A program made the translations under genes and the position numbers. The notes below the pieces were generated by a model. It worked only from the letters and a program-made list of their open reading frames with translations. It ran no database searches and was not told where the DNA came from. A stretch of 64,000 nt of DNA, taken from the NCBI GenBank assembly GCA_036504335.1, contig DASXVJ010000023.1, positions 144,389 through 208,388 on the forward strand, in the 5' to 3' direction. Below are positions 8,558 through 34,441 of this stretch, piece after piece. The stretch's first letter is position 1. Each line of letters opens with the position of its first letter. Source of the stretch: Thermoanaerobaculia bacterium. GTDB lineage: Bacteria > Acidobacteriota > Thermoanaerobaculia > UBA5066.

Positions 8558-9340
8558 GTGCGGTTGAAGCTCGAGATTGCGTACCTGGGAACCTTCTTCG
8601 AAGGCTGGCAGGTGCAGGCGCCCCGCGAAGGCGGCGAAAAGCCGCGCACGGTCCAGGGCGAATTGGAGATTTCTTTGAATGAAATACTTCAGAGGGAGAT
8701 CCGGGTACACGGCTCCGGCCGCACCGATTCCGGCGTGCACGCGGACGCTCAGGTCGCCCATTTCGACGTTCCCGAGGGTGCGCCCCTCTTACCCTCTCAG
8801 AAAATCCCCCGTGCCCTGAATTCCAGGCTTCCATGGGATGTGCGGGTCCTGTCGGCGTCCGAGGCCTCGCCGGACTTCCACGCCCGCTACTCGGCAAGCG
8901 GCAAGGTCTACGTCTACCGCCTCCGCCGCGGTGACACCCTCCTCCCGCACGGAGGTCTCGTCGAGGCGCTCGCGGGAGAGCCGCTCGACGTCGGCGCGAT
9001 GCGTGCGGCGGCGGACCTTCTCGTCGGGACGCGCGACTTCGCGCCGTTCTCGATCACGGGCTCGGACCCCGGGACGACCGTGCGGACGCTCCGCCGTCTC
9101 GACGTCGCGGAGGACCGCTCGCTCCTCGTGATCACGGCGGAAGGCGACGGCTTCCTGCGCGGCATGGTGCGGCGGCTCGTGGGGACCCTCCGCGACGCGG
9201 GCCGGGGACACATCCGCCCGGACGAGGCTCTCGCCCGCCCGGGCCCGACCGCCGAGGCCCGCGGGCTCACGCTCGCCCGTGTGCTGTACGCGCCGGACGC
9301 GGCGGGGGCGCCGGGGCCGTCCCGGCCGCCCGCGCGATAG
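8558..9340 (+). CDS. truA: tRNA pseudouridine(38-40) synthase
   Basis: Core motif GSGRTDSGVHADAQVAHFDV with catalytic Asp. GTG start. Confidence 0.9.
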   Translation: MRLKLEIAYLGTFFEGWQVQAPREGGEKPRTVQGELEISLNEILQREIRVHGSGRTDSGVHADAQVAHFDVPEGAPLLPSQKIPRALNSRLPWDVRVLSASEASPDFHARYSASGKVYVYRLRRGDTLLPHGGLVEALAGEPLDVGAMRAAADLLVGTRDFAPFSITGSDPGTTVRTLRRLDVAEDRSLLVITAEGDGFLRGMVRRLVGTLRDAGRGHIRPDEALARPGPTAEARGLTLARVLYAPDAAGAPGPSRPPAR

Positions 9341-9373
9341 AATTCGCCGTTCGGGCGCATCCCGCCCGGCTGG

Positions 9374-10195
9374 ATGATCGACAAGGATTCCATCGCCGCC
9401 GCCGGTTCCCCCGATCGAGCCCTGCTCGACGGGCTCGACCTCGCGCGACTGCCCCGGCACGTGGCCGTGATCATGGACGGCAACGGGCGCTGGGCGCGCC
9501 AGCGCCGGCTGCCGCGCGTGGAGGGCCACCGCGCGGGGATCGCCTCCGTGCGGGCCACCGTGGAGACGGCCGCGCGCCTGAAGCTGACCGCGCTGACGCT
9601 CTACGCGTTCTCGACGGAGAACTGGAAGCGGCCGCACCTCGAGGTCGCGACGCTCATGGCGCTCCTCAAGGAGTACCTCAGGCGCGAGCTGAAGACGCTG
9701 CTCGACAACGACATCAGGTTCCGCGTCGTGGGCCGCATGGACGGGCTCGACCCTTCCGTGCAGCGTGAGCTGCAGAGCGCGCTCGACGCGACGGCGCACT
9801 GCAAGGGGATGGTGTTCAACATCGCGCTCAACTACTCCGGGCGCACCGAGCTCGCGGACGCGATGCGGTCGCTCGCCGCCGAGGTGAAGGCCGGACGCCT
9901 GCAGCCCGAGGAGATCGACGAGGCGGCGATCGAGGCGCGCCTCTACACGGCCGGCCTTCCCGACCCGGACCTCCTGATCCGGACGAGCGGCGAGATGCGG
10001 ATCTCGAACTACCTGCTCTGGCAGATCGCCTATTCCGAGATCTACGTGACGCCGGTCCTCTGGCCCGACTTCCGGGCCCGCGATTTCCTCGAGGCGATCG
10101 CGGAGTTCCAGAAGCGCGAGCGGCGGTACGGCGGCGTGCCGGAGACCGAGCCCCTGCGAGAGGACGGCCCGCGCCCGGCGGCGGCCACGCGGTGA
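9374..10195 (+). CDS. uppS: Undecaprenyl-diphosphate synthase
   Basis: Motifs HVAVIMDGNGRWA, LTLYAFSTENWKRP and RTSGEMRISNYLLWQ. Confidence 0.95.
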   Translation: MIDKDSIAAAGSPDRALLDGLDLARLPRHVAVIMDGNGRWARQRRLPRVEGHRAGIASVRATVETAARLKLTALTLYAFSTENWKRPHLEVATLMALLKEYLRRELKTLLDNDIRFRVVGRMDGLDPSVQRELQSALDATAHCKGMVFNIALNYSGRTELADAMRSLAAEVKAGRLQPEEIDEAAIEARLYTAGLPDPDLLIRTSGEMRISNYLLWQIAYSEIYVTPVLWPDFRARDFLEAIAEFQKRERRYGGVPETEPLREDGPRPAAATR

Positions 10196-22863: not shown

Positions 22864-22960
22864 CGTCGCACGCGGCGCGTGTTAAATTCCCCGCTTCACG
22901 GGCCATCCGTTGAGAATGATTCTCCTCGGGGGCGGGGCCGTGTATCTTCGGAGGATCTAC

Positions 22961-24847
22961 ATGCGGAAGGTGGTCTACAGGTCCATTCGCGGTGCGGCCA
23001 ACACCGCCTGGAACGTGTTCCAGGCCGTGAACCGCCGCGTGCCCGCGCGTTCCTTCCAGCCCTCCTGGTCGCCCGAGCCGCTCCCGAAGAGCCACGAGCG
23101 CACAAAGCCGCCTCTCGGGTTCCCGCGCCGCACGGACTCCCTCTGCCCGACCTGCACCCGGGAGGTCCGCGATGCGATCGTGGGCGGCACGCGTGAGCTC
23201 TCGGAGCTCATCGACGGTCGCCCCGGCGAGATCCCGGCCGACATCGTCCAGCGCGGCAACGAGATCTGGATGGTCAAGACGTGCCCGAAGCACGGCACGT
23301 TCGAGGACCTCATGGCGAGCGACGCGCGCTTCTTCGCACGCCTCGAAGAGAACTTCTTCGGCCGCGACGTGAGGATCGCGAAGGACAAGCTCCACGACCA
23401 CGGCTCCTCCTCGATGCGCTACGGCCGCGGCGCGGTCCTCACGGTGGACCTCACGAACCGCTGCAACATGATGTGCAACCCGTGCTTCATGGACGCCAAC
23501 CAGGTCGGCTACGTGCACGAGCTCGGGTGGGACGACGTCAAGGAGATCCTCGACAACGCCGTCTCGATCAAGCCGCAGCGCCAGATGTCCGTGCAGTTCT
23601 CGGGCGGCGAGCCCACGATCTCGCCGTTCTTCATCGAGGCCACGCGCTACGCCCGCGAGATCGGCTACTTCTCGGTCCAGTGTGCGACGAACGGAATTCG
23701 CTTCGCGCAGGAGCCGGAATTCGCGAAGGCCGCGTACGACGCGGGGCTCCGGCTCGCGTACCTCCAGTTCGACGGCGTCGGAGACGAGGCCAACGAGCAC
23801 CGCGGCGTCGGGAACCTCTACGACGTGAAGCTCCGGGCGCTCGCCAACCTCCACGCGGCGGGGATCGACGTCACGCTCGTCACGACGATCGTGAACGGCG
23901 TCAACGACGACCAGGTCGGCCCGACCCTGAAGTTCGCGATCGAGAACATCGACAAGATCAACGCCCTCTCGTTCCAGCCCGTGTCCTTCACGGGCCGCGA
24001 CGAGGAGATCGACGACGAAACGCGCACGAAGCAGCGCTATACGCTCGCCCATCTCGCGCACGACGTGAAGGACCAGGCCGGCATCGGCGAGCCGATGCGC
24101 GACTGGTTCCCGCTGTCGGCCTCGGGCCCGTTCTCGGACCTGAAAGACCTCCTCGGCGGCCTCGAGGCGCAGTGGGGCTCGCTCAAGTGCGGCTGCCACC
24201 CGAACTGCGGGATCGCGACGATGATGCTCGTGCGCCCGGACACGGGACAGGCCGTGCCCCTGACCCAGATCGTCGACGCGGACCGCCTGCTGCGCGACCT
24301 CACCGTCGTCACGGACGCCGCGCGCGGAAAGTTCCTGACGGTCCTCCAGACGGCGCTCGCTCTCGCGCGCAACATCCGTCCCGAGGGCGTTCCCCACAAC
24401 CTCGGCGTCTGGGAGACGCTCAAGGTCATGGACGGCCACACGGGCAAGGGCATGGGGATCGCGAAACAGGGCCGCTATCCGTGGCGCGTCCTCCTCGTGG
24501 CCGGGATGTGGTTCCAGGACCTCTTCAACTACGACTTCCGGCGGACGGAGATGTGCATCATTCCGTACGGAACGCAGCTCGGCGAGATCTCGTTCTGCGC
24601 GTACAACACCGGCGCGGGATGGCGGAAGATCGTCGAGGAGATGCACCAGAGCGCGACGCTCTCCGAGTGGTACAAGGACAAGGGCCGCCACCCCGTGTAC
24701 GCGCACGGCAAGCGCGTGCCGCTGCCCGCGTTCAACCCGGGGGCGCGCCCGTCGACGCTGCCGGTCTACGAGCCCGCGGCCGCCCGCACGGGCGACCTCC
24801 CGGCCGCCGCGATGCTTCCGAGCTTCGGCGCCGCTTCCGGGAAATAG
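22961..24847 (+). CDS. Radical SAM enzyme with N-terminal Zn-ribbon and C-terminal Cys/His-rich extension (function unknown)
   Basis: CNMMCNPC is a Cx3Cx2C motif in LTVDLTNRCNMMCNPCF. N-terminal CPTC...CPKHG treble-clef. C-terminal CGCHPNCG. GGAGGA Shine-Dalgarno 6 nt upstream of ATG 22961. Confidence 0.8.
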   Translation: MRKVVYRSIRGAANTAWNVFQAVNRRVPARSFQPSWSPEPLPKSHERTKPPLGFPRRTDSLCPTCTREVRDAIVGGTRELSELIDGRPGEIPADIVQRGNEIWMVKTCPKHGTFEDLMASDARFFARLEENFFGRDVRIAKDKLHDHGSSSMRYGRGAVLTVDLTNRCNMMCNPCFMDANQVGYVHELGWDDVKEILDNAVSIKPQRQMSVQFSGGEPTISPFFIEATRYAREIGYFSVQCATNGIRFAQEPEFAKAAYDAGLRLAYLQFDGVGDEANEHRGVGNLYDVKLRALANLHAAGIDVTLVTTIVNGVNDDQVGPTLKFAIENIDKINALSFQPVSFTGRDEEIDDETRTKQRYTLAHLAHDVKDQAGIGEPMRDWFPLSASGPFSDLKDLLGGLEAQWGSLKCGCHPNCGIATMMLVRPDTGQAVPLTQIVDADRLLRDLTVVTDAARGKFLTVLQTALALARNIRPEGVPHNLGVWETLKVMDGHTGKGMGIAKQGRYPWRVLLVAGMWFQDLFNYDFRRTEMCIIPYGTQLGEISFCAYNTGAGWRKIVEEMHQSATLSEWYKDKGRHPVYAHGKRVPLPAFNPGARPSTLPVYEPAAARTGDLPAAAMLPSFGAASGK

Positions 24848-24856
24848 CGCCCGGCC

Positions 24857-25642
24857 TCAGGGCGCGCGGAGAGCCGCCTCGGCGAGCGACGCGAGGCCTG
24901 CGGCCGCCTCGTCCGGCTGCTCGAGCGGAACCATGTGGCCGGCGCCCGGCACGGTCAGGAGCCTCACCCACGGCGCGTGCGCCGCGACGGCCGTCATGGC
25001 CTCCGAGTCGGCGGGCGGGGCGATCGCGTCCTCCTCGCCGACGGCGACGAGGAGAGGCCGGTCCCACGCGGAGAGAACCTCGAAGCCCTCGTCGCGCACG
25101 GCGAGGCCCGCAAGGTCGGCCATGGCCGTTTCGGGCGGCGTCGCGAGAACCATCCGAGTCACGAGGTCCTCGGCCGGCGTTCCCTTCGAGCCGTGGGCGA
25201 GGAGCTTCGGAAGCATCGCGGAGAGCACCGCCTCGATGCCGTCCTTGCGGATGGCCTCGATGGCCGCCTTCCGGCCCGCGCGTCCCGCGGTGTCGTCGGC
25301 GGAGGCCTTCGTGTCGAAGAGAGCGAGGCCACGGAGGCGGCCCTGAAAGCGCGCGCCGTGTCGCTTGATGAGCTCGAAGCAGACGTAGCCGCCCATCGAG
25401 AGCCCCGCGAGGAGGAAGGGCGCGTCGGCCGGCAGCGCCGCTCCGAGGTCGCGCGCGACGTCGTCCGCGAGGAGCGACATCGCGTGCGTGGCGGCGGCGG
25501 GATGCGGCGACCGCCCGCGCCCGCGCAGGTCCGGGGCGAAGACGGACGTGATCGGGCCGAGCCGGCCGTCCGCGGCCCGTTCGGCGAGCGGGTTCCACAT
25601 GCGCCGGTCGAGGGGGTAGCCGTGGAGCGCGACGAGGTGCAT
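24857..25642 (-). CDS. Alpha/beta hydrolase
   Basis: Nucleophile elbow GLSMGG; HGYP oxyanion region. Confidence 0.75.
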   Translation of the reverse strand: MHLVALHGYPLDRRMWNPLAERAADGRLGPITSVFAPDLRGRGRSPHPAAATHAMSLLADDVARDLGAALPADAPFLLAGLSMGGYVCFELIKRHGARFQGRLRGLALFDTKASADDTAGRAGRKAAIEAIRKDGIEAVLSAMLPKLLAHGSKGTPAEDLVTRMVLATPPETAMADLAGLAVRDEGFEVLSAWDRPLLVAVGEEDAIAPPADSEAMTAVAAHAPWVRLLTVPGAGHMVPLEQPDEAAAGLASLAEAALRAP

Positions 25643-25652
25643 GGCGGCCATC

Positions 25653-27110
25653 TTAGCGGCCGGCGGCGGGCACGACCCGCCACTCCGCGTCGCCGGCGTT
25701 TCCGGCCGGCCGTGTCCTCTCCTTCACGAAGGCGTAAACGGCCGTCTCGCGAATACGCTCGACGTCGGCGATCGGCTCACGGAAGAGGATCGGCAGGCCT
25801 GGGCTCGCCGCGAGAGCGTCCACGAGCCGCTCGTTGCCGCGGTCGCGCCTCAGGCAGTACCAGAAGGACGGGTTCACGTAGAAGCGGCCGGGTGCGCCCG
25901 TGCCGGTGAGAGGGTAGAGGTTCTGCAGCGCGCCGTGGACGAGAAGCGTGCCTCCGGCGGGAACGCGCTCTCTCACGAGCGCCGCGGCGGCCCGGCTCGC
26001 CGAGTCGTCCCAGTAGAAGACGGGCCCACCGGCCCGGTCGAGGAGCAACGGCCCCGCGCCGAGCGCGGCGACGGCGAGGAAGACGGCACACGCTGCGGCG
26101 CCGCCGGCGGCCCCGAAAAGGCGAAGAGGTCCGCCCCGGCCTTTCCGGAGCCGGCGGAAGACGACGGGCAGAACGAGGGCGAGCCGGGCGGCCGCGAGCG
26201 CGCCGAGCCCCGTCAGGGCCGCGAGGTGCAGGAGGCCGGGACGCGGCCAGGCCATCCCGACTGCGCCGAGCGCGACCGCCGCGAGCGGCGAGCGCAGACG
26301 GCGCGCCGGCAGCGCCGCGGCAGAGAGGCCGAGCGCGGCGAACGGCACGAAGAGCACGAGCGCCTCGTGCGCGTCCGCCCCGGTGAGCCGGACGGCGATC
26401 TCCCGCGACATCCCGGAGAAGACGGGGTAGATCAGCGTCCAGGCGAGGTGCCGAGTCGTCCGGAACGCAAGGGCCCACGAGAGCGCGAAGCCGAGGTAGG
26501 GAAGAGCGGCCGCTGCGCCGAAGAGAAGCGCGGCGCGCCGCCGGCCGCGCAGAGCGACCCACAGGAGCGCGGCGAGCGCCGCCCACGCCGAGGTCTGTTT
26601 GACGAGGATCCCGGCGCCGAAGACGAGGCCCGCGGCCGCGACGTCGCCGAGCGCACCGGTGCGTTCGTGGCGCTCCAGGAGGAGGACGCCCGCGAGAAGG
26701 AGGGGCGCGAGGAACGGCTCGGGCCAGATCGCGGGACCTTCCGCGTAGACGGTCAGGAGCGCGAGGACGGGGACGCCGAGCGCGAGCGCGGCCCGCGGGC
26801 CCGATCGTGCTCGGCGGTGCGGGCGCGTGCCGAGCACGACGAGGCCGCCCGCCGCCGCCAGCGAGAGGGCCGGGATCGCGCGCAGGACGTTCGGGGTGAA
26901 GCCGAACAGGGCGCCGGCGGCGGCCGTCAGGAGAATCAGGAGAGGCGTGTGCGGAAAGAGGATCCCGTCATAGAGCCTGACGCCGCGCGTCACGAACCAC
27001 GCGGGCGTGACGATCTCCGGCCAGGCCGTGACCGACACGACGAACGGGAGCGCACCCGCGAGAAGGGCCGCGAGCGCGGCGATCGGGGCGGCCGCGCGCG
27101 CCCCTCTCAC
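25653..27110 (-). CDS. Polytopic membrane protein, GT-C-like glycosyltransferase/DUF2029-like
   Basis: Roughly 12 predicted TM helices. GTG start overlaps the stop of the upstream gene (GTGA). Confidence 0.6.
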   Translation of the reverse strand: MRGARAAAPIAALAALLAGALPFVVSVTAWPEIVTPAWFVTRGVRLYDGILFPHTPLLILLTAAAGALFGFTPNVLRAIPALSLAAAGGLVVLGTRPHRRARSGPRAALALGVPVLALLTVYAEGPAIWPEPFLAPLLLAGVLLLERHERTGALGDVAAAGLVFGAGILVKQTSAWAALAALLWVALRGRRRAALLFGAAAALPYLGFALSWALAFRTTRHLAWTLIYPVFSGMSREIAVRLTGADAHEALVLFVPFAALGLSAAALPARRLRSPLAAVALGAVGMAWPRPGLLHLAALTGLGALAAARLALVLPVVFRRLRKGRGGPLRLFGAAGGAAACAVFLAVAALGAGPLLLDRAGGPVFYWDDSASRAAAALVRERVPAGGTLLVHGALQNLYPLTGTGAPGRFYVNPSFWYCLRRDRGNERLVDALAASPGLPILFREPIADVERIRETAVYAFVKERTRPAGNAGDAEWRVVPAAGR

Positions 27111-27484
27111 TCGGGCCGGTACGTCACGCTGTTGCGCGGGCCCTCCCAGACCGTGACCTCTTCGAGCCGCGCGCCGTCCCCGAGGAGCGCCGCCTTCCCG
27201 ATCTCGTCCGCGACCCAGAGCGCGACGTTCTCGGCGCTCGCATTCCTGCGGTCGAACGGCGGCACGGTGTTGAGGTCGCGGTTGTGGAGGCGCGAGGCGA
27301 GCTCTCTGACGAACGCTTCCGTCGGCACGAAGTCGACGGCGAGGCCGTACGGGCCGAGGCGATCGACCGAGAGCGCGACCTCGATCTTCCAGGAGTGGCC
27401 GTGCACGGGCTCGGGGCCGCCGACGTAATCCACGAGATGGTGCGCGGCCTCGAAAGTCGCGTGGCAGCGGACGGTCCAGCGCAT
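27107..27484 (-). CDS. 6-pyruvoyl-tetrahydropterin synthase family protein (QueD-like, catalytic Cys not conserved)
   Basis: FEAAHHL...PVHGHSWKIEV is the PTPS Zn-binding HGH motif. The Cys normally 4 residues before HGH is Pro (GGPEPVHGH). Confidence 0.75.
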   Translation of the reverse strand: MRWTVRCHATFEAAHHLVDYVGGPEPVHGHSWKIEVALSVDRLGPYGLAVDFVPTEAFVRELASRLHNRDLNTVPPFDRRNASAENVALWVADEIGKAALLGDGARLEEVTVWEGPRNSVTYRPE

Positions 27485-27518
27485 GGCCGCCAGTCTACGA
27501 CGCGTGGAACGGCCGCGC

Positions 27519-29174
27519 TCAAACGGTTTCGAGGTAGCGGTGCACGACGCCGACGGCGCCGGAGCCCTCGCCGACGGCCGCGGCGACTCTCTTGCCCGAG
27601 CCCGCGCGCACGTCGCCGGCGGCGAACACTCCCGGAACGCTCGACTCGAAGAGGAACGGGTCCCTCTCGAGCGTCCAGCCGCGGGGCCGCCGGCCCAGGG
27701 GCGTCAGATCGGGCCCGGTCACGACGAAGCCCGCCTCGTCGATCTCGAGGAACCCGGCGACCATCTCGGTCTGCGGCCTTGCACCGATGAAGATGAACAT
27801 CGCCGCCGCGTCGAGCTCGCGCTCGTCCCCCCCGGCGAGGCGGCGGACGACGATCTTCTCGAGCCGGCCGTCGCCCCGAACTGCGCTCACTTCGACGCCC
27901 GGCACGACGTCGATGTTCGGCGTCGCCTCGATCCGGTCGATCAGGTAGCGGGACATCGACTTGGCGAGGGAGTCCGCGCGGACGAGCATCGTGACGCGGC
28001 GCGCGTAGCGGGAGAAGAAGAGGGCTCCCTGGCCGGCCGAGTTCCCCGCGCCGACGACGCACACGTCCCGGCCACGATAGGTCGCGGCCTCGGTCATCGC
28101 CGCACCGTAGTAGACGCCGATCCCGAGGAGCGCCTCGGAGCCGGACGTCTCCAGCTTCCGCACGGCGACGCCTGTGGCCAGGACGACGGCGTAGCAGCTC
28201 ACGTCGGTCCCGTCGGCGAGCCGGGCGACGCGATACGGGTCCTCGCGGCGCAGGCTGACGACCTCCTGGGCGATCACCTCGGCGCCGAAGCGCCGCGCCT
28301 GGGTCGTGGCGCGGCGGGCGAGGTCGGCCCCGGATACGCCCGACGGGAAGCCGAGGTAGTTCTCGATCCTCGAGCTGGTGCCGGCCTGGCCGCCGGGCGC
28401 GCTCTGCTCGACGAGGGCCGTGCGCAGCCCCTCCGACGCTCCGTAGACCGCCGCGGCGAGGCCCGCCGGGCCTCCGCCGACGATCAGCAGGTCGTAGAAA
28501 GGCAGGCGCGCCTTCGTCTGCATCCCGGTCTTCTCCGCGAGCTCGCGGCTCGTCGGAGCGGCCAGGAACGTGCCGTCCGGGAAGAGGACGACGGGGAGCT
28601 TCGTCTCGGCGCCGAACGAGCGGATCAGCTCCCGGGTCGACGGGTCCTGGTCGACGTCGATCCACTGGTAGGGGATCTGGTTGCTCGACAGGAATTCCTT
28701 CACCGCGAAGCTGCGAGGCGACGACTGCGCGCCCGCGACCCGGATCCCTTCGTAGGGAAGGCGCACGTGCGCCGTCCAGTCGGACAGCAGGTCGTCGAGG
28801 ACCGGGTAGAGCCGCTCGGCGGGAGGGTCCCAGGGCTTCAGCAGGTAGTGATCCAGTCCGACGTCGTTGATGCCGGAGATCGCGGCCTGCGTGTCCGCGT
28901 ACGCCGTGAGGAGGACCCGGCGCGACTCGGGGTGAAGCTTGATCGCCTCGCGCAGGAATTCCGTGCCCGACATCATCGGCATCCGCTCGTCGGCGAGGAA
29001 GAGCGCGACCGGAGTTCCGCGCTGCTTGAGCTGGCGGGCGGCCTCGAGCGCTTCGCCCCCGGACACGGCCTTCAGGATGCGGTAGTCGCTCCGGTAGTGC
29101 TGCTTGAGGTCGCGCTCAATGGCGCCGAGCACCTCGGGGTCGTCGTCGACCGTCAGGATCACCGGTTTGGCCAT
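27519..29174 (-). CDS. Response regulator: REC domain fused to a Cys-less glutaredoxin-like linker and a thioredoxin-reductase-like FAD/NAD(P) oxidoreductase lacking the CxxC
   Basis: N-terminal REC (ILTVDDDPEVL...FLADERMPMMSG...LKP). Then GGGPAGLAAAVY (FAD GxGxxG) and VVGAGNSA (NAD). The TrxR CATC position reads YYGAAMTEAA. Confidence 0.8.
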   Translation of the reverse strand: MAKPVILTVDDDPEVLGAIERDLKQHYRSDYRILKAVSGGEALEAARQLKQRGTPVALFLADERMPMMSGTEFLREAIKLHPESRRVLLTAYADTQAAISGINDVGLDHYLLKPWDPPAERLYPVLDDLLSDWTAHVRLPYEGIRVAGAQSSPRSFAVKEFLSSNQIPYQWIDVDQDPSTRELIRSFGAETKLPVVLFPDGTFLAAPTSRELAEKTGMQTKARLPFYDLLIVGGGPAGLAAAVYGASEGLRTALVEQSAPGGQAGTSSRIENYLGFPSGVSGADLARRATTQARRFGAEVIAQEVVSLRREDPYRVARLADGTDVSCYAVVLATGVAVRKLETSGSEALLGIGVYYGAAMTEAATYRGRDVCVVGAGNSAGQGALFFSRYARRVTMLVRADSLAKSMSRYLIDRIEATPNIDVVPGVEVSAVRGDGRLEKIVVRRLAGGDERELDAAAMFIFIGARPQTEMVAGFLEIDEAGFVVTGPDLTPLGRRPRGWTLERDPFLFESSVPGVFAAGDVRAGSGKRVAAAVGEGSGAVGVVHRYLETV

Positions 29175-29177
29175 CCC

Positions 29178-30572
29178 TCAGCCCTTTCCTGCGTCGAGAG
29201 GGAGCGTCACGCGGAACTCGGTGCTCCCGGGGCGCGAGTCGGCCTCGATCTCTCCCTGGTGTTTGCGGACGATGCGCCGCGCGATGTCGAGGCCGAGGCC
29301 GGTGCCCTGGCCGACCGGCTTCGTCGTGAAGAACGGATCGAAGATGCGCTCCCGGATCTCCGGGGGCAATCCAGGCCCGTCGTCGACGACGCGCACGACG
29401 ACGGACGGGCCCTGGCGCGCCGCCGAGACGTCGACGCGGCCCTTGGCCGCGTCGAGCGCGTTGTCGACGAGATTCGCCCACACCTGGTTGAGCTCGCCCC
29501 CGAATCCCGGGATGCGCGGGAGGTCGGCCGGGGCGTCGAGGCTCACGCTCACGGACTTGCCGCGGGCCTTCGCGTTCAGCACGGCGAGCGTGTCGGCCAG
29601 CCCCTGGCGGACGTCCACCGGTTTGGGCATGGTGGCCTGGTCCATGTACGTGAAGCCCTTCACCGCCGCGACGAGATTGTGGATCTTCGTCGCGGAGGCC
29701 TCGATCTCGGACGCCAGCCGGTACGTCCCGCAGCCGGCCACGAGCCAGGGGAGGGTCGCCCGGAGAGCCTCGGCGTCGAGCGCCCCGGCGAGCTCGTCGA
29801 GGGATTCGAGAGTGACCGCGGACTCCGCGAGCGCCTCGGCGGCGGTGACGTCGGCGCCGTGACGCGAGAGCCAGCCGGCGAGGGCGTCTTCACGATCCGC
29901 CTGCTCGATGGGAGAGCGCCCGAACGTCGCGCCGGCCGCGAGCTGGCAGAGATTGCGCGCCCGGTCCACCGAGGCCCGCTGGGCCTCGGTGAGGCGGGCG
30001 GCGCCGAGCGCGCGGGACGCCGTTTCGAGCTCCGACAGCCCGAGCCGGAGTCCCTTGGCGCTCCGGGCGACCGCCGACGCCGGGTTATTCAGCTCGTGCG
30101 CGAGCCCCGCCGCCAGCTTGCCGAGGGAGGACATCCTTTCTTCGTGAAGGTCGCTCGACGTGAACTGGCGGGCGCGGTCGACCATGACGTGCACGAAGAT
30201 CGCGGTGAGGTCGTAGCAGTCGCGAATCAGCTCGGGGATCTCCTTGCGCGGGATCACGAGGATTTCCGTCGGCGCCTCGGCCTTCACGTCGCCCGGCGAC
30301 CCGGCGAGACGCGAGTACGGCAGGACGCCGCTCACGTCACCGCCGCGCCACTCCATGACCTTGTGGGGCCCGGCGCCCCGGTCGACGTAAATCGACAGGT
30401 GGCCCGAGAGGATGATGTAGAGACCCAGCACCGCATTGCCCTTGGCCGAGAGGACGTCTCCGGTCTCCAGCTTGACGAGGTGGCCGCGGGCGGCGAGCCA
30501 GGCGAGCTGGTCGGAAGGGGCGCCGGCGAGCAGCCGGTGCGCGGACAGACGATCGAGGATCGAACTCTCCAT
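29178..30572 (-). CDS. Cytoplasmic sensor histidine kinase with N-terminal cyclic-nucleotide-binding (CAP-like) domain
   Basis: H-box GLAHELNNP, N-box NLVDNALDA, G1 VVDDGPGLP, G2 GTGLGLDI. N-terminal roughly 120 aa has a cNMP-binding fold. No TM segment. Confidence 0.85.
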   Translation of the reverse strand: MESSILDRLSAHRLLAGAPSDQLAWLAARGHLVKLETGDVLSAKGNAVLGLYIILSGHLSIYVDRGAGPHKVMEWRGGDVSGVLPYSRLAGSPGDVKAEAPTEILVIPRKEIPELIRDCYDLTAIFVHVMVDRARQFTSSDLHEERMSSLGKLAAGLAHELNNPASAVARSAKGLRLGLSELETASRALGAARLTEAQRASVDRARNLCQLAAGATFGRSPIEQADREDALAGWLSRHGADVTAAEALAESAVTLESLDELAGALDAEALRATLPWLVAGCGTYRLASEIEASATKIHNLVAAVKGFTYMDQATMPKPVDVRQGLADTLAVLNAKARGKSVSVSLDAPADLPRIPGFGGELNQVWANLVDNALDAAKGRVDVSAARQGPSVVVRVVDDGPGLPPEIRERIFDPFFTTKPVGQGTGLGLDIARRIVRKHQGEIEADSRPGSTEFRVTLPLDAGKG

Positions 30573-30581
30573 GGTGAGAGT

Positions 30582-33227
30582 TTATGCGCCGAGGACGGTT
30601 TCGAGCCGCGTCACGCGCACGGCGTGCTGGCCCTCGGGCGGGACGCCGTATTCTTTCTCGAGGAATTTCTTCGGCGTCGTGGCGGTCGCTCCCATGAGCG
30701 AGAGGCGCTCTTCGCGCGTCTCGCCGTTCGGAAGCGTAAACGCGTAAACGGCCTCCGTCACGGCCCTTCCGAGCGACTTCGCGCCCTTCGGGAGCTCGAC
30801 AGAGGACGTGATCACGAGGCCCGGAGGGAGCCGGTCGTTCACGGCGGAGACGTGGGCGTCCGTCAGCGCGTCGAGGACGTCCACGTCGAAGAGCTCGTGT
30901 TTCGACTCGTGCCCGAGCGGAAGGGCCGGACCCATCGACAGGCGCAGGTGCGGGTTGTAGCCCTCCGTGTAACGCACGGGCGCGCCCGAGGCGCGCAACG
31001 CGCGCTCGAGGACGTCCATCGTGTTGCGGTGCGAGAGGTACCGCGCGTCGCCGAGCTTCTCGAACGAGAGGCGGTACGTCCGCGCGGACTCCGGCACGGG
31101 AGCCGCGACGCCGCTCGCGGGCGAGCGGCGCTCACGCAGCGGGAGAAGATCCGGCGTCGACTTCATGCGGTATGCCGCGCCCTTGGCTTTTTCGGTATAG
31201 GCGGAGGGGAGGGGAAAAGACTCTTCTGCTGAAGAAGAAGAGGGGAGAAGAGTTTCTTCGAGTGATTGTGAGGGCGATGCGCCCGCGCCCTGCGCAGGCG
31301 CGACGGGCAACGCCCCGCCGCCGAGGCTGCCTCTCTTACCTTCTAAGAAATCCGAATCCGAATCCGAAGCAAAATTGAATTCCTTCGGCAGCGGATTCGC
31401 GAGGACGATGTCCTCGCCGTTGCCCGGGACGCCGCAGGCGTAGCAGTGCCCCCACTTGCAGTCGTCCGTGTGCATCTCCTTGAGCGCCTTCTTCCACTCC
31501 ACGACGAGGAAGGGCTTGCGGATGGACGCGTCGACGACGTCCCAGGGGAGCGTCTCCTTGAGGTCCTTGTCGCGGAGGTGGCGGAACTTCGGGACGCCTG
31601 CGGCCTCGAGCGCCTCCGTCCAGCGCTCCCACGAGAAGTGCTCGCTCCACGCGTCGAAGCGTCCGCCCCTCTTCCACACGTCGAGGACGGCGCGGCCCAT
31701 CCGCCGGTCGCCGAGCGAGAGCATCGCCTCGATCTCGGCTTCCTTCGGCTCGTGCCACGTCATCTTCGCTCCCTTGACGGAGCGGAAACGGTCCTTCAGG
31801 TACGCGATCTTCCGCGAGAGGTTCTCGACGCCGTCGAACCCGAACCACTGGAAAGGCGTGAAGCTCTTCGGGATGAAGCAGCCGACCGAGACGTTCACCT
31901 GCGGTCTCACGCCGTGCCTGCGGCCCTGGGCGAGGATGTCCTTCACGAGCGTCACGAGCTCGTCGAGGTCCGGGTCGGTCTCCGTCGGGAGGCCGATCAT
32001 CGTGTAGACCTTGATCATGTCCCAGCCGCGCCCGAAGGCGACGTCGGCGGCCTGGACCATGTCGGCGTTCGTGAACGTCTTGTTGATGACGCGGCGGAGG
32101 CGGTCCGAGCCGGTTTCGGGCGCGAACGTGAAGCCGGACTTGCGCACCTCCGAGACGGCATCCGCGAGCGCGACGGAGAAGGCTTCGGCGCGGAGCGAGG
32201 GGAGGGAGATCGACACCTTCGTCTTCGCGAGCTCGGGCGCGAGGCACGCGACGAGCGGCTCGATCTGCGAGTAGTCCGCCGAGGAGAGCGAGAGGAGCCC
32301 GACCTCGCTCCAGCCCGCCTCGTCGATGAACGCCTTCGTCGCCTTCGCGACGTCGGCGGGGTCCAGCTCGCGCACGGGGCGGTACCAGTAGCCCGCCTGG
32401 CAGAACCGGCAACCCTGCGTGCAGCCGCGCATGATCTCGAGGCCGAGGCGGTCCTGGACGATGTCCACGGACGGGACCATGGGCTTTGCGGGATAGACGT
32501 CGGCCGAGAGCTTCTCCACCCAGACCCGCTTGACCTCTGCGGGAACTCCAGCCGTGTTCGGCGCGTACGCGGCGACACGATCCTCGTCATACGTCACGTC
32601 GTAGAGCGACGGGACGTAGATCCCCGGGCAGGCGGAGAACGCGAGGAGGCGCTCGCGGCGGGGGAGGCCCTTCGTCCGCGCGACGGCCCCGAGGAAAACG
32701 GGCAGCGCTTCCTCCGCGTCGCCGATCAAAAAGGCGTCGAAGAAATCGGCGAGGGGTTCGGGATTCGCGACGCAGGGGCCGCCGCCGATCACGACGGGGT
32801 GCGCGTCGCCGCGGTCCGCCGCGAGGACGGGGATCCCCGCGAGGTCGAGCATGTTCGGGACGTTCGTGTAGTTCATCTCGCTCTGGAGCGAGAGGCCGAA
32901 GACGTCGAAATCGCCCACGGGGGCGAAGGACTCGACGGAGAAGAGCGGGACCTTCTCCCGGCGCAGGACCGCCTCGAAGTCCGTCCACGGCGCGTACGTC
33001 CGCTCGCAGGCCCAGGCCGCGCGGCGGTTCACGATCTCATAGAGGATCTTCGTGCCCGTGTGGCTCATCCCGATCTCGTACGCGTCCGGGAAGCCGAGGC
33101 AGACCGTGACGTCCATCGCGCCGAGATCCTTGCGCACGACGTTCCGCTCCAGGCCGAGATAGCGCCCGGGGCGCTCGACGGCGAGGAGGAACGGCTCGAA
33201 GCGGGGGCGGACGGATGCGTAGCGCAA
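30582..33227 (-). CDS. Fused B12-binding radical SAM protein (TIGR03960-like) and DUF2344/TIGR03936-like C-terminal domain
   Basis: B12-binding N-terminus followed by a CxxxCxxC-type motif (CTQGCRFCQAGYWYRP). Ser/Asp/Glu-rich low-complexity linker. C-terminal DUF2344-like roughly 230 aa. TTG start at 33227 gives LRYASVRPRFEPFLLAVERPGRYLG, matching family N-termini; the upstream 290 aa of the track ORF are junk. Confidence 0.8.
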   Translation of the reverse strand: MRYASVRPRFEPFLLAVERPGRYLGLERNVVRKDLGAMDVTVCLGFPDAYEIGMSHTGTKILYEIVNRRAAWACERTYAPWTDFEAVLRREKVPLFSVESFAPVGDFDVFGLSLQSEMNYTNVPNMLDLAGIPVLAADRGDAHPVVIGGGPCVANPEPLADFFDAFLIGDAEEALPVFLGAVARTKGLPRRERLLAFSACPGIYVPSLYDVTYDEDRVAAYAPNTAGVPAEVKRVWVEKLSADVYPAKPMVPSVDIVQDRLGLEIMRGCTQGCRFCQAGYWYRPVRELDPADVAKATKAFIDEAGWSEVGLLSLSSADYSQIEPLVACLAPELAKTKVSISLPSLRAEAFSVALADAVSEVRKSGFTFAPETGSDRLRRVINKTFTNADMVQAADVAFGRGWDMIKVYTMIGLPTETDPDLDELVTLVKDILAQGRRHGVRPQVNVSVGCFIPKSFTPFQWFGFDGVENLSRKIAYLKDRFRSVKGAKMTWHEPKEAEIEAMLSLGDRRMGRAVLDVWKRGGRFDAWSEHFSWERWTEALEAAGVPKFRHLRDKDLKETLPWDVVDASIRKPFLVVEWKKALKEMHTDDCKWGHCYACGVPGNGEDIVLANPLPKEFNFASDSDSDFLEGKRGSLGGGALPVAPAQGAGASPSQSLEETLLPSSSSAEESFPLPSAYTEKAKGAAYRMKSTPDLLPLRERRSPASGVAAPVPESARTYRLSFEKLGDARYLSHRNTMDVLERALRASGAPVRYTEGYNPHLRLSMGPALPLGHESKHELFDVDVLDALTDAHVSAVNDRLPPGLVITSSVELPKGAKSLGRAVTEAVYAFTLPNGETREERLSLMGATATTPKKFLEKEYGVPPEGQHAVRVTRLETVLGA
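31333..31350. repeat. Copy (18/19) of the low-GC CTCTT(C)ACCTTCTAAGAAA motif
   Basis: ctcttaccttctaagaaa; encodes DFLEGKRG on the minus strand. Confidence 0.5.
31351..31368. repeat. Tandem hexamer (TCCGAA)x3 in the inter-domain linker, encoding SDSDSD
   Basis: Direct reading tccgaatccgaatccgaa. Confidence 0.6.
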
Positions 33228-33286
33228 GCGGGCTCTCCGAACGGGGCAGTCTAGCGGATCACCTGAGACGCTGTCGCGTGGCCGCG

Positions 33287-33919
33287 TCAGGCCGTCTTCA
33301 GGCCGACCGGGCAGGACACGCCCGTGCCGCCGATCCCGCAGTAGCCGTCGGGGTTCTTCGCGAGGTACTGCTGGTGATACTCCTCGGCGTAGTAGAAGGG
33401 CGGAGCGTCGAGGATTTCGGTCGTGATCGCGCCGTAGCCGGCCTCGGCGAGCTTCGCCGCGTACGCGGCCTTCGACGCCTCGGCGGCGGCCTTCTGCTGC
33501 GCGTCGAACGTGTAGATCCCGGAGCGGTACTGCGTGCCGGCGTCGTTGCCCTGGCGCATGCCCTGCGTCGGGTCGTGGCTCTCCCAGAAGATCCTCAGAA
33601 GACTCTCGTACGAGACCTGCGCCGGGTCGAAGGCGACGAGGACGACTTCGTTGTGACCCGTGCGTCCCGTGCACACCTCGCGATACGTCGGGTTCGGCGT
33701 GAGGCCCGCCGCGTACCCCGCCGCCGTCGTGAAGACGCCGGGCGTCTGCCAGAACTTTCTCTCCGCGCCCCAGAAGCAGCCGAGGCCGAAGAGCGCGATC
33801 TTCGTCCCGGCGGGGAACGGCGGCTCGAGCGGGTGCCCGTTGACGAAGTGCTTCGCCGGGACGGCCATCTTCTCCGCGCGTCCGGGGAGCGCATCTTCGG
33901 GGGTCGGCATGCGGAGCAT
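33287..33919 (-). CDS. msrA: Peptide-methionine (S)-S-oxide reductase
   Basis: GLGCFWGAE active site. Start trimmed to [14 protein letters not shown] to align with MsrA N-termini. Confidence 0.9.
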
Positions 33920-34014
33920 CTTTCCGGCGTAGAGCAAGGCCGTCGATTCTGCTCCTCGCGCGCGCGAAGGGGAAGATCCCCCCTCCGGCAAAACCGAACG
34001 TCCCGTTTCCCGCA

Positions 34015-34043
34015 TTGACTCGCCCCGGTGCTCGGCCTAGATT
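34015..34043 (+). promoter_or_regulatory. Sigma-70-type promoter, leaderless arrangement
   Basis: TTGACT (34015-20), 17-nt spacer, TAGATT (34038-43), then 8 nt to ATG 34052. Same geometry and the same -10 hexamer as the clpB promoter. Confidence 0.45.
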
Positions 34044-34051
34044 GCCGACCG

Positions 34052-34441
34052 ATGGCGCTCGACGAGAAACTCCGCGCGTATCTCCGCGAGCTCGGAGCCG
34101 CACTGAACGAGGCCGTGTCCTCGTCCGACAAGGTGCACGAGATTCTCGCGAAGGTGAAGAGCGAGGGCTACGGCGCGTATCTCTGTCTCGACGCGACCGT
34201 CGCGCTCGACAAGCGCGGGCGCCGCTCGTCGGCCGCGCTCCCGTCGATCCGCCGCGGCGGCCTCAACGCGTCGAAGGAAGAGCGGGAAGCGGGCGGCATG
34301 GATACGGCCGTCTTCCAGATCAACGTGAAGGACCTCGGCTTCCTGCGCTCCGTCGGAATCGACCCGACGCGCCCGGTCCGCGCGCGCCGGAATCCGCAGG
34401 CGGCCGTCACGATCCGGTCGACGGTCGCGAAACGCGGCTGA
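34052..34441 (+). CDS. Hypothetical protein (129 aa)
   Basis: High GC3 coding signature. Stop abuts the rlmN start. Confidence 0.45.
   Translation: MALDEKLRAYLRELGAALNEAVSSSDKVHEILAKVKSEGYGAYLCLDATVALDKRGRRSSAALPSIRRGGLNASKEEREAGGMDTAVFQINVKDLGFLRSVGIDPTRPVRARRNPQAAVTIRSTVAKRG

Follow-up and report, generated by a model that had tools for sequence, protein, structure and literature searches.

To our knowledge, the response regulators characterized so far act, nearly without exception, on transcription, the turnover of second messengers, chemotaxis or protein phosphatases. Direct switching of a flavin oxidoreductase by a receiver would tie signalling to redox metabolism without gene expression. 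Among flavoenzymes of the thioredoxin reductase (TrxR) fold, the YumC-type ferredoxin–NAD(P)+ reductases (FNRs) hand electrons from the flavin straight to the metal centre of a protein. Response regulators in which a receiver (REC) domain is joined to a thioredoxin reductase are already listed in the response-regulator census of Galperin (PMC5847659). Here we describe a protein of this architecture together with its adjoining kinase, encoded at positions 27519–30572 of a 64,000-nucleotide stretch of DNA from a Thermoanaerobaculia bacterium (assembly GCA_036504335.1, contig DASXVJ010000023.1), the whole of which we call the window. An initial annotation of this DNA had read the two genes as a cyclic nucleotide-gated two-component system with a flavoprotein output that lacks redox cysteines. 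On balance, we favour the reading that the pair is an orthodox cytoplasmic two-component system and that its response regulator is a phosphorylation-gated NAD(P)H:acceptor flavin oxidoreductase.

Results

The interval is filled exactly by two open reading frames (ORFs) on the minus strand, as first annotated: a soluble histidine kinase of 464 amino acids (29178–30572) and a response regulator of 551 amino acids (27519–29174), the stop codon being included in both sets of coordinates. Only 3 nt separate the genes (the kinase stop TGA is followed by GGG and then by the response regulator ATG), and the Shine–Dalgarno sequence of the response regulator, GGAAAGGG, sits within the 3' end of the kinase gene; the two are therefore almost certainly co-translated as a translationally coupled pair. 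Because database searches returned homologues of each protein in the thousands (at least 8000 candidates scored per search), the best match to the response regulator being 100% identical and coming from a Thermoanaerobaculia (Acidobacteriota) metagenome-assembled genome, sequence comparison identifies both as real genes and not chance ORFs of a window with ~70% G+C. The sub-coordinates given below for features within the two genes were confirmed by translation, and these features lie on the minus strand. A scan of positions 25500–34300 for promoters and terminators found terminator-like sites at chance level and a sole promoter-like site, on the opposite strand.

The response regulator has three consecutive Pfam matches, namely Response_reg at residues 6–117 (E = 6e-13), Glutaredoxin at residues 157–198 (E = 9e-6) and Pyr_redox_2 at residues 227–537 (E = 6e-36), and its AlphaFold model has a predicted local distance difference test (pLDDT) score of 95.1 and a predicted template modelling (pTM) score of 0.90. 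The receiver (PF00072; residues 4–121, 28812–29165) shows what is expected of a response regulator: an acidic pocket, a phospho-acceptor aspartate (D62, codon 28989–28991), threonine and lysine switch residues and an adjoining kinase gene. D10, D11, D62, T90 and K113 are conserved in 78–79 of 79 orthologues. The receiver is followed by a glutaredoxin/mycoredoxin-like (Grx-like) domain (residues 143–216, 28527–28748), for which the profile evidence is weak but significant (PF00462; over residues 154–215, the mycoredoxin model TIGR02200 at E = 1.7e-7, below its cut-off). The thioredoxin fold and its cis-proline loop are both recognizable, P194 is nearly invariant, and the whole domain can be aligned with its Grx-like counterpart in P0305, a metagenomic representative of 407 amino acids. 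Neither a CxxC nor a CxxS active site is found in it, residues 140–220 being free of cysteine; the receiver and the Cys-less Grx-like segment were thus correctly recognized by the initial annotation.

The remainder of the protein (residues 225–551, 27522–28502) is a two-domain module of TrxR fold for flavin adenine dinucleotide (FAD) and NAD(P)H (PF07992). Among solved structures it matches TrxRs at E = 1e-47 vs 1e-16 to 1e-19 for FNRs, and in Foldseek the best superposition of the model was on a TrxR in the flavin-reducing (FR) conformation (5mh4; TM score 0.95, root-mean-square deviation 1.7 Å), TrxRs in the other conformation reaching TM scores of ~0.64. Both GxGxxG-type motifs are intact, GGGPAG for FAD (residues 233–238, 28461–28478) and GAGNSAG for NAD(P)H (residues 375–381, 28032–28052). 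In an alignment of 108 sequences of the core family, that is, the Grx-like plus TrxR-like module, these glycine motifs are invariant together with many flanking residues (in the second motif, G375 and N378). Judging from the motifs and the model, binding of FAD and NAD(P)H has likely been kept, and a TrxR-fold module with both motifs makes the output a flavoprotein rather than a DNA-binding protein, as had been proposed.

The redox disulfide of TrxR has been lost from this module. When the response regulator was aligned with E. coli TrxB and B. subtilis YumC, using reference sequences verified as identical to PDB 1cl0_A and 3lzw_A, the TrxB segment GVSACAT-CDG fell opposite GVYYGAAMTEA (residues 353–363, 28086–28118), with C135 replaced by G357, C138 by T361 and D139 by E362. 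All 79 orthologues have Y356, G357 and E362, and the position of C138 is occupied by threonine or serine. The loss of CATC claimed earlier is borne out by this alignment. The only cysteines of the protein are C327 and C372; a CxxC elsewhere in the C-terminal domain was looked for and not found, and we rejected a canonical TrxR with a displaced CxxC on these grounds. The TrxB motif HRRDGFR reads VRADSLA in the response regulator, R399 being the only arginine left, an insert of ~20 amino acids precedes the GD motif, and the score against the TrxR equivalog model TIGR01292 is 232.3 bits, below the cut-off of 343.45. The protein fails as a TrxR because it lacks both CxxC and the HRR motif and scores short of that cut-off. 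Homologues are named 'FAD-dependent oxidoreductase' or 'thioredoxin reductase (NADPH)' in databases, and 'thioredoxin reductase' is a misleading name for family proteins without CxxC. Membership of the YumC-type FNRs was likewise rejected, owing to weak similarity and the lack of a C-terminal extension: the response regulator ends in ...HRYLETV, level with the TrxB C-terminus, and YumC runs ~15 residues further (...PLHSTSLFENK). As a description of the chemistry, 'FNR-like' is plausible.

We then placed the core in its family. With the Grx-like plus TrxR-like module as query, 3255 proteins (clusters at 50% identity) were obtained at E <= 1e-30 from 1.84 billion cluster representatives, a count that includes canonical TrxRs. 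Composition was examined in the best 150 of these 3255 representatives, of which just 5 have a CxxC at any position and almost all show the motif G[VIL][YFH][YF][GAS] at the old active site. These numbers bear on whether the module could still be a disulfide reductase, with cysteine supplied in trans (for example by the Cys-rich zf-UBP protein discussed below) or by a single non-canonical residue. The closest sequence matches are true TrxRs, a Cys-rich partner is encoded beside part of the family, and C327 is shared by 46 of 79 orthologues. C327, however, aligns with a non-active-site cysteine of E. coli TrxB and is not conserved, the C135 and C138 positions are held by invariant glycine and by threonine or serine, CxxC is absent from the protein in the window and rare among its relatives, and the score lies at 232 vs 343 bits relative to the NCBIfam TrxR cut-off. 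We find residual disulfide reduction scarcely credible.

Only one representative among the 150, P0305, was seen to keep CATC in the reductase part, and it also keeps WCPDC in the Grx-like domain; it is 42% identical to the core from the window over 410 amino acids. Because P0305 has both centres, comparison of the sequences indicates that the core family descends from a redox-active Grx–TrxR fusion in which both disulfide centres were lost, WCPDC becoming SSPRS and CATC becoming GAAMT.

Clustering of the N-terminal extensions of 104 core representatives, with Pfam checks, gave two main groups, a REC cluster of 53 and a cluster of 50 with a cyclic nucleotide-binding (CNB) domain. A few representatives carry EF-hands, SnoaL or a further CNB domain in addition, and stand-alone cores without a sensor domain exist as well (P0254 and P0271). 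In P0269, a CNB domain 52% identical to the sensor of the kinase in the window, LPxSR included, is fused directly to the core; it appears from this fusion that one type of sensor acts on the same core by two routes, directly or via a kinase and a receiver. Since such diverse regulatory and accessory domains are fused to it, the core suggests itself as a general signal-controlled output module. Individual fusions of other kinds were also noted. In P0323 the Cys-less core ends in EF-hands recognized by Pfam, and P0363 has a tail that looks EF-hand-like by eye; P0251, P0243 and P0381 include an N-terminal SnoaL-like domain with REC, a REC domain with a CNB domain at the C-terminus, and a C-terminal tail that by eye resembles GNAT.

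A more serious alternative is that the Cys-less module no longer turns over a substrate and is a pseudo-enzyme or redox-sensing adaptor, sensing the redox or nucleotide state through bound FAD and NAD(P)H and acting by protein–protein interaction, for instance with the zf-UBP protein. The response regulator would then integrate phosphorylation with the cellular redox state. Loss of both disulfide centres with retention of the fold and the nucleotide motifs speaks for this alternative, as does a Grx-like domain that is conserved though Cys-less; further points in its favour are that no conserved substrate-type gene lies nearby and that the model adopts a single, FR-like conformation. The segments around the flavin and NAD(P)H sites (YYGA..EA, NSAGQAA, MSxYL and GDVRxGSxKRVA) are nevertheless extremely conserved, which is more typical of a working active site, CxxC-less proteins of TrxR fold such as the YumC-type FNRs (PDB 3lzw) are active enzymes, and some cores stand alone with no sensor domain at all. 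We therefore think the adaptor unlikely, while giving it real weight, and prefer the oxidoreductase.

The kinase is cytoplasmic in its architecture. It has no hydrophobic membrane segment (the maximum Kyte–Doolittle mean over 19 residues is 1.41), in line with the earlier claim that it lacks a transmembrane sensor. HATPase_c matches residues 361–460 (Pfam, E = 1.5e-26) within a catalytic ATP-binding (CA) domain (residues 317–460, 29193–29624) that contains the N, G1, F and G2 boxes, and the H-box of the dimerization and histidine phosphotransfer (DHp) domain reads LAHELNNP with H159. These are the features of a HisKA-type kinase, and H159, N371, D397, G399, G401, F414 and G421–G427 are invariant in two orthologue alignments. 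Pfam HisKA itself (PF00512) was detected in 21 of 66 orthologues and not in the kinase from the window, which has an insert in its DHp domain. In the AlphaFold model, built on an alignment of 86 homologues (pLDDT 89.8), a beta-barrel (residues 31–108) is followed by a continuous helix, a four-helix insert, DHp helix 2 and the CA domain. The continuous helix (residues 120–191, 30000–30215) joins the C-helix of the sensor to DHp helix 1 and carries LAHELNNP, the H159 codon lying at 30096–30098; DHp helix 2 (residues 267–308, 29649–29774) aligns with that of CckA and ZraS.

Between the two DHp helices, at the tip of the hairpin, lies a family-specific helical insert of ~75 amino acids (residues 192–266, 29775–29999). 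It has no Pfam match, in this kinase or in orthologues, and alignments with kinases in the PDB flank it on both sides and skip residues 175–280, no solved kinase being aligned across it. The segment comprising the DHp domain and the insert (residues 136–320) was detected at E = 1e-11 to 1e-55 in the adjoining kinases of ~72 of 80 related loci. On HisKA kinases the usual docking site of receivers is the DHp-tip region, which is where the insert sits; speculatively, it may help to dock the bulky response regulator.

Our reading of the sensor departs in one respect from that of the initial annotation. The N-terminal domain (residues 1–119, 30216–30572) does have the CAP/CNB fold that had been predicted, eight beta-strands in a barrel flanked by helices: Pfam cNMP_binding (PF00027) matches residues 33–117 with 34.3 bits against a gathering cut-off of 27.5 (E = 2.3e-8), a profile made from 13 close sensor domains matches the solved CNB domains of PKG, PKA-R, DNR, CRP and Cmr (E = 1e-19 to 1e-8), and the kinase N-terminus models as this fold, the strands of its barrel at residues 31–108 having pLDDT mostly >90. 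The equivalent of the phosphate-binding cassette, GVLPYSRLAGSPGDVKA (residues 82–98, 30279–30329), is degenerate. When the sensor is aligned with E. coli CRP or with a eukaryotic CNB domain of solved structure, V83 falls at the position of the glutamate that binds the ribose 2'-OH and S92 at that of the arginine that binds the cyclic phosphate, so that G82-V83 stands in place of G-E and S92-P93-G94 in place of R-[ST]-A. The cassette carries instead a motif that is invariant within the clade, G82-x-L84-P85-x-S87-R88. Among 66 orthologous kinases adjacent to a response regulator, G-x-L-P-x-S-R occurs in 30, G-E alone in 12 and a canonical GE...R[STNMA]A cassette in 7 (for example L069, GEMALLSSAPRNATVRA), the remainder being different. 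In the CNB domains fused directly to the core, the acidic residue is usually kept and the arginine is not.

Gating by cyclic nucleotides, as the initial annotation had it, would mean that cAMP or cGMP binds the N-terminal domain of the kinase and so controls phosphorylation of the flavoprotein, in a pathway from cyclic nucleotide to kinase to oxidoreductase. The Pfam score above threshold and the profile matches to PKG, PKA-R, CRP and Cmr agree with such a pathway, and the seven orthologues with a canonical cassette hint that an ancestral sensor may have bound a cyclic nucleotide. For the kinase in the window the idea is unsupported because both of the contacting residues, Glu and Arg, are missing from its cassette, and the substituted motif is shared with nearly half of the orthologues (the 30 noted above). 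Several of the HMMER alignments of the sensor profile to PKG and PKA domains, moreover, end short of the cassette. Many domains of the CRP/FNR family that have this fold take other ligands (haem, 2-oxoglutarate and Fe-S clusters are examples), and the best solved matches include the haem/NO sensor DNR. Matches to Pfam 'cNMP_binding' are thus not proof of cyclic-nucleotide signalling; we regard the cyclic nucleotide pathway as quite improbable, and the sequence of the cassette indicates that the ligand is probably something other than cAMP or cGMP.

We also analyzed how widely the pair is distributed and what accompanies it. In a scan of one genome per species, at least 594 species encode a relative of the core; among the genera with family members are the culturable Nostoc, Anabaena, Streptomyces, Micromonospora, Chryseobacterium, Hymenobacter, Dyadobacter and Caballeronia. 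The neighbourhoods of the REC type were examined in the best 80 loci, which encode full-length REC-type proteins with 49–70% identity and span Gemmatimonadota, Acidobacteriota, Bacteroidota, Chloroflexota, Cyanobacteria, Actinomycetota, Burkholderiales and Planctomycetota. At ~72 of the 80, a kinase homologous over the DHp domain with its insert and over the CA domain adjoins the response regulator gene on the same strand, upstream or downstream of it, and PF00027 was found in 62 of 66 such kinases, with PAS in its place in 2. Some cyanobacterial and Burkholderiales loci have two paralogous family kinases near a single response regulator (L017:11204-14146, L033:8717-12336, L039:5068-6522 and 8569-10056). 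The pair accordingly belongs to a large family that is catalogued and widespread, and is not a peculiarity of the window. The link from signalling to metabolism had been called unusual; this holds with respect to characterized systems but not in genomes, where the pair is widespread and its REC–TrxR architecture had already entered the census.

For the other type, 80 metagenomic loci in which the CNB domain is fused to the core were examined, and these are essentially without a kinase. All-against-all clustering of the ORFs from the 80 + 80 loci showed that only the kinase, the response regulator and antisense shadow ORFs recur, the sole recurrent extra being a gene for a small zf-UBP protein of ~90 amino acids (PF02148, E = 3.6e-14). 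This gene is found at 16 of the 80 REC-type loci, mostly beside the core gene or just beyond the adjoining kinase, and at 27 of the 80 CNB-type loci, in 25 of the 27 within ~160 bp of the core gene. It thereby accompanies 20–34% of family loci, in several phyla (examples are L011:10112-10381, L050:8681-8959, L064:8663-8932, L094:2655-2933 and L128:8551-8817, besides ~38 other loci). No fusion of zf-UBP to the core was seen among the 150 representatives, and we found no described function for the small bacterial zf-UBP protein in the literature.

The genes that flank the pair in the window, upstream of the kinase and downstream of the response regulator, are not conserved with it in related loci. 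Next to the kinase on its upstream side, and likewise on the minus strand, is a B12-binding radical SAM protein gene (30582–~33100; TIGR03960 fused to TIGR03936), the stop codon of which is 9 nt before the kinase start, and further upstream is msrA (33287–34015, minus strand). Downstream, and also on the minus strand, a 6-pyruvoyl-tetrahydropterin synthase/QueD-like gene (27107–27484) begins 34 nt past the response regulator stop and is followed by genes for a PMT_2 glycosyltransferase-like membrane protein (25653–27110) and an alpha/beta hydrolase (24857–25651). Another radical SAM protein is encoded on the plus strand at positions 22910–24847. Of the NCBIfam models, that of the tetraether lipid synthase Tes fits it best (NF045702, E = 2.4e-97), the score of 326.6 bits being short of the cut-off of 450; the occurrence of a Tes-like enzyme in a metagenome-assembled genome of an acidobacterium could bear on the synthesis of membrane-spanning lipids of the branched glycerol dialkyl glycerol tetraether (brGDGT) type in bacteria. 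A role of the pair in anti-phage defence was considered and rejected, PADLOC giving no match for either protein.

Discussion

We propose that the CAP-fold sensor would bind its ligand and that the signal would run along the continuous helix, from the C-helix of the sensor into DHp helix 1, to H159. Phosphotransfer from H159 to D62 would then turn the flavoprotein on or off; the same core would be switched, in the sister clade, when a ligand binds the directly fused CNB domain. With both CxxC centres replaced, the module should be incapable of dithiol–disulfide exchange. It would oxidize NAD(P)H and pass the electrons through FAD directly to an acceptor other than a disulfide. The small zf-UBP metalloprotein is a candidate acceptor and the only candidate partner to come out of the genomic comparison, and the analogy would be with rubredoxin reductases or ferredoxin reductases, which belong to the same flavoprotein superfamily; O2, a quinone or a metal centre would also be possible.

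Several observations weigh against this reading. Two of the three arginines with which TrxR binds the 2'-phosphate of NADPH are gone, so that the cofactor preference of the response regulator is uncertain and we infer NAD(P)H binding from the motifs only. Apart from zf-UBP, no other neighbour is conserved across the 80 + 80 loci, and the electron acceptor is therefore a guess; the 64-kb window itself contains no zf-UBP gene (tblastn, E > 1). We found no measured activity, flavin content, phosphotransfer or ligand binding in the literature for any member of the family, and full-text searches found no paper on its function, the loss of cysteines, the partner kinase or the zf-UBP neighbour.

A broader proposal can be put forward tentatively: that the family is a previously unrecognized class of signal-gated, Cys-free flavoenzymes of TrxR fold, occurring as the two-component pair or as the CNB fusion, in which electrons from NAD(P)H pass directly to a dedicated small metalloprotein of the zf-UBP type, to O2 or to another small acceptor, and in which the sensor ligand is not a cyclic nucleotide. 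As a whole we consider this possible but doubtful. If it were true, bacteria in at least eight phyla would have a switchable redox output under the control of a CAP-fold sensor. Experiments can take hold of the family at several points: the sensor occurs in two settings, in the kinase or joined to the enzyme itself; a relative is known that is redox-active and resembles the ancestor; and a zf-UBP gene recurs beside the family.

How the pair relates to described systems can be set out domain by domain. The sensor shares the beta-barrel and C-helix of the CNB domains of CRP, FNR, DNR, PKA and PKG and differs from them in having G-x-L-P-x-S-R in a cassette without the glutamate and arginine; its output is a histidine kinase, not a helix-turn-helix domain or a protein kinase. 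The REC–TrxR response regulators of the census have the same domain architecture as the one described here; the part of the census that lists them gives the architecture only and is silent on cysteine loss, partner kinase and function (PMC5847659).

Within the family, the CNB–core fusions (P0259, P0269 and 48 other cluster representatives) have a homologous core, with Grx-like and Cys-less TrxR-like parts, the conserved motifs of which are shared by 41 aligned CNB-type representatives, and a CNB domain of the same type as the kinase sensor. They differ in being a one-protein version, the sensor being fused directly to the core without histidine kinase or receiver (3 CA-domain matches in 80 loci). 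P0305 has the same arrangement of Grx-like and TrxR parts and the same insert before the GD motif. It lacks REC and CNB domains, however, and has both disulfide centres, whereas the response regulator has lost all four cysteines and gained a receiver.

Among characterized flavoenzymes, the low-molecular-weight TrxRs (EC 1.8.1.9; E. coli TrxB, 1cl0 and 1f6m; L. lactis, 5mh4) are the best matches in both sequence and structure, with the same two-domain FAD/NAD(P)H fold and with the GxGxxG, GGQ, ATG, GxGxxA and GD motifs all kept. The response regulator departs from them in having GAAMT for CATC, within an invariant YYG motif, in the reduction of HRRxxxR to a single arginine, in its insert before GD and its score under the TIGR01292 cut-off, and in its N-terminal REC and Cys-less Grx-like domains. 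AhpF resembles it in layout, with one or more N-terminal thioredoxin-fold domains ahead of a TrxR-like module; Foldseek aligns ~560 columns of the two, and the NCBIfam AhpF models match the response regulator at E = 1e-45 to 1e-55. AhpF has a redox-active CxxC in both parts, though, the full-length TM score is only 0.4, and the response regulator scores far below the AhpF cut-offs. The TrxR-like FNRs (B. subtilis YumC, 3lzw; 3ab1 and 2zbw) share with the response regulator a TrxR fold without CxxC, and YumC has an aromatic-rich motif, NLHYFV, at the site of GVYYGA. They are set apart by their far weaker similarity, by the C-terminal extension that covers the flavin and by an HRRD NADPH motif, neither of which the response regulator has; conversely, YumC has neither the sensor nor the Grx-like domain that mark the present family.

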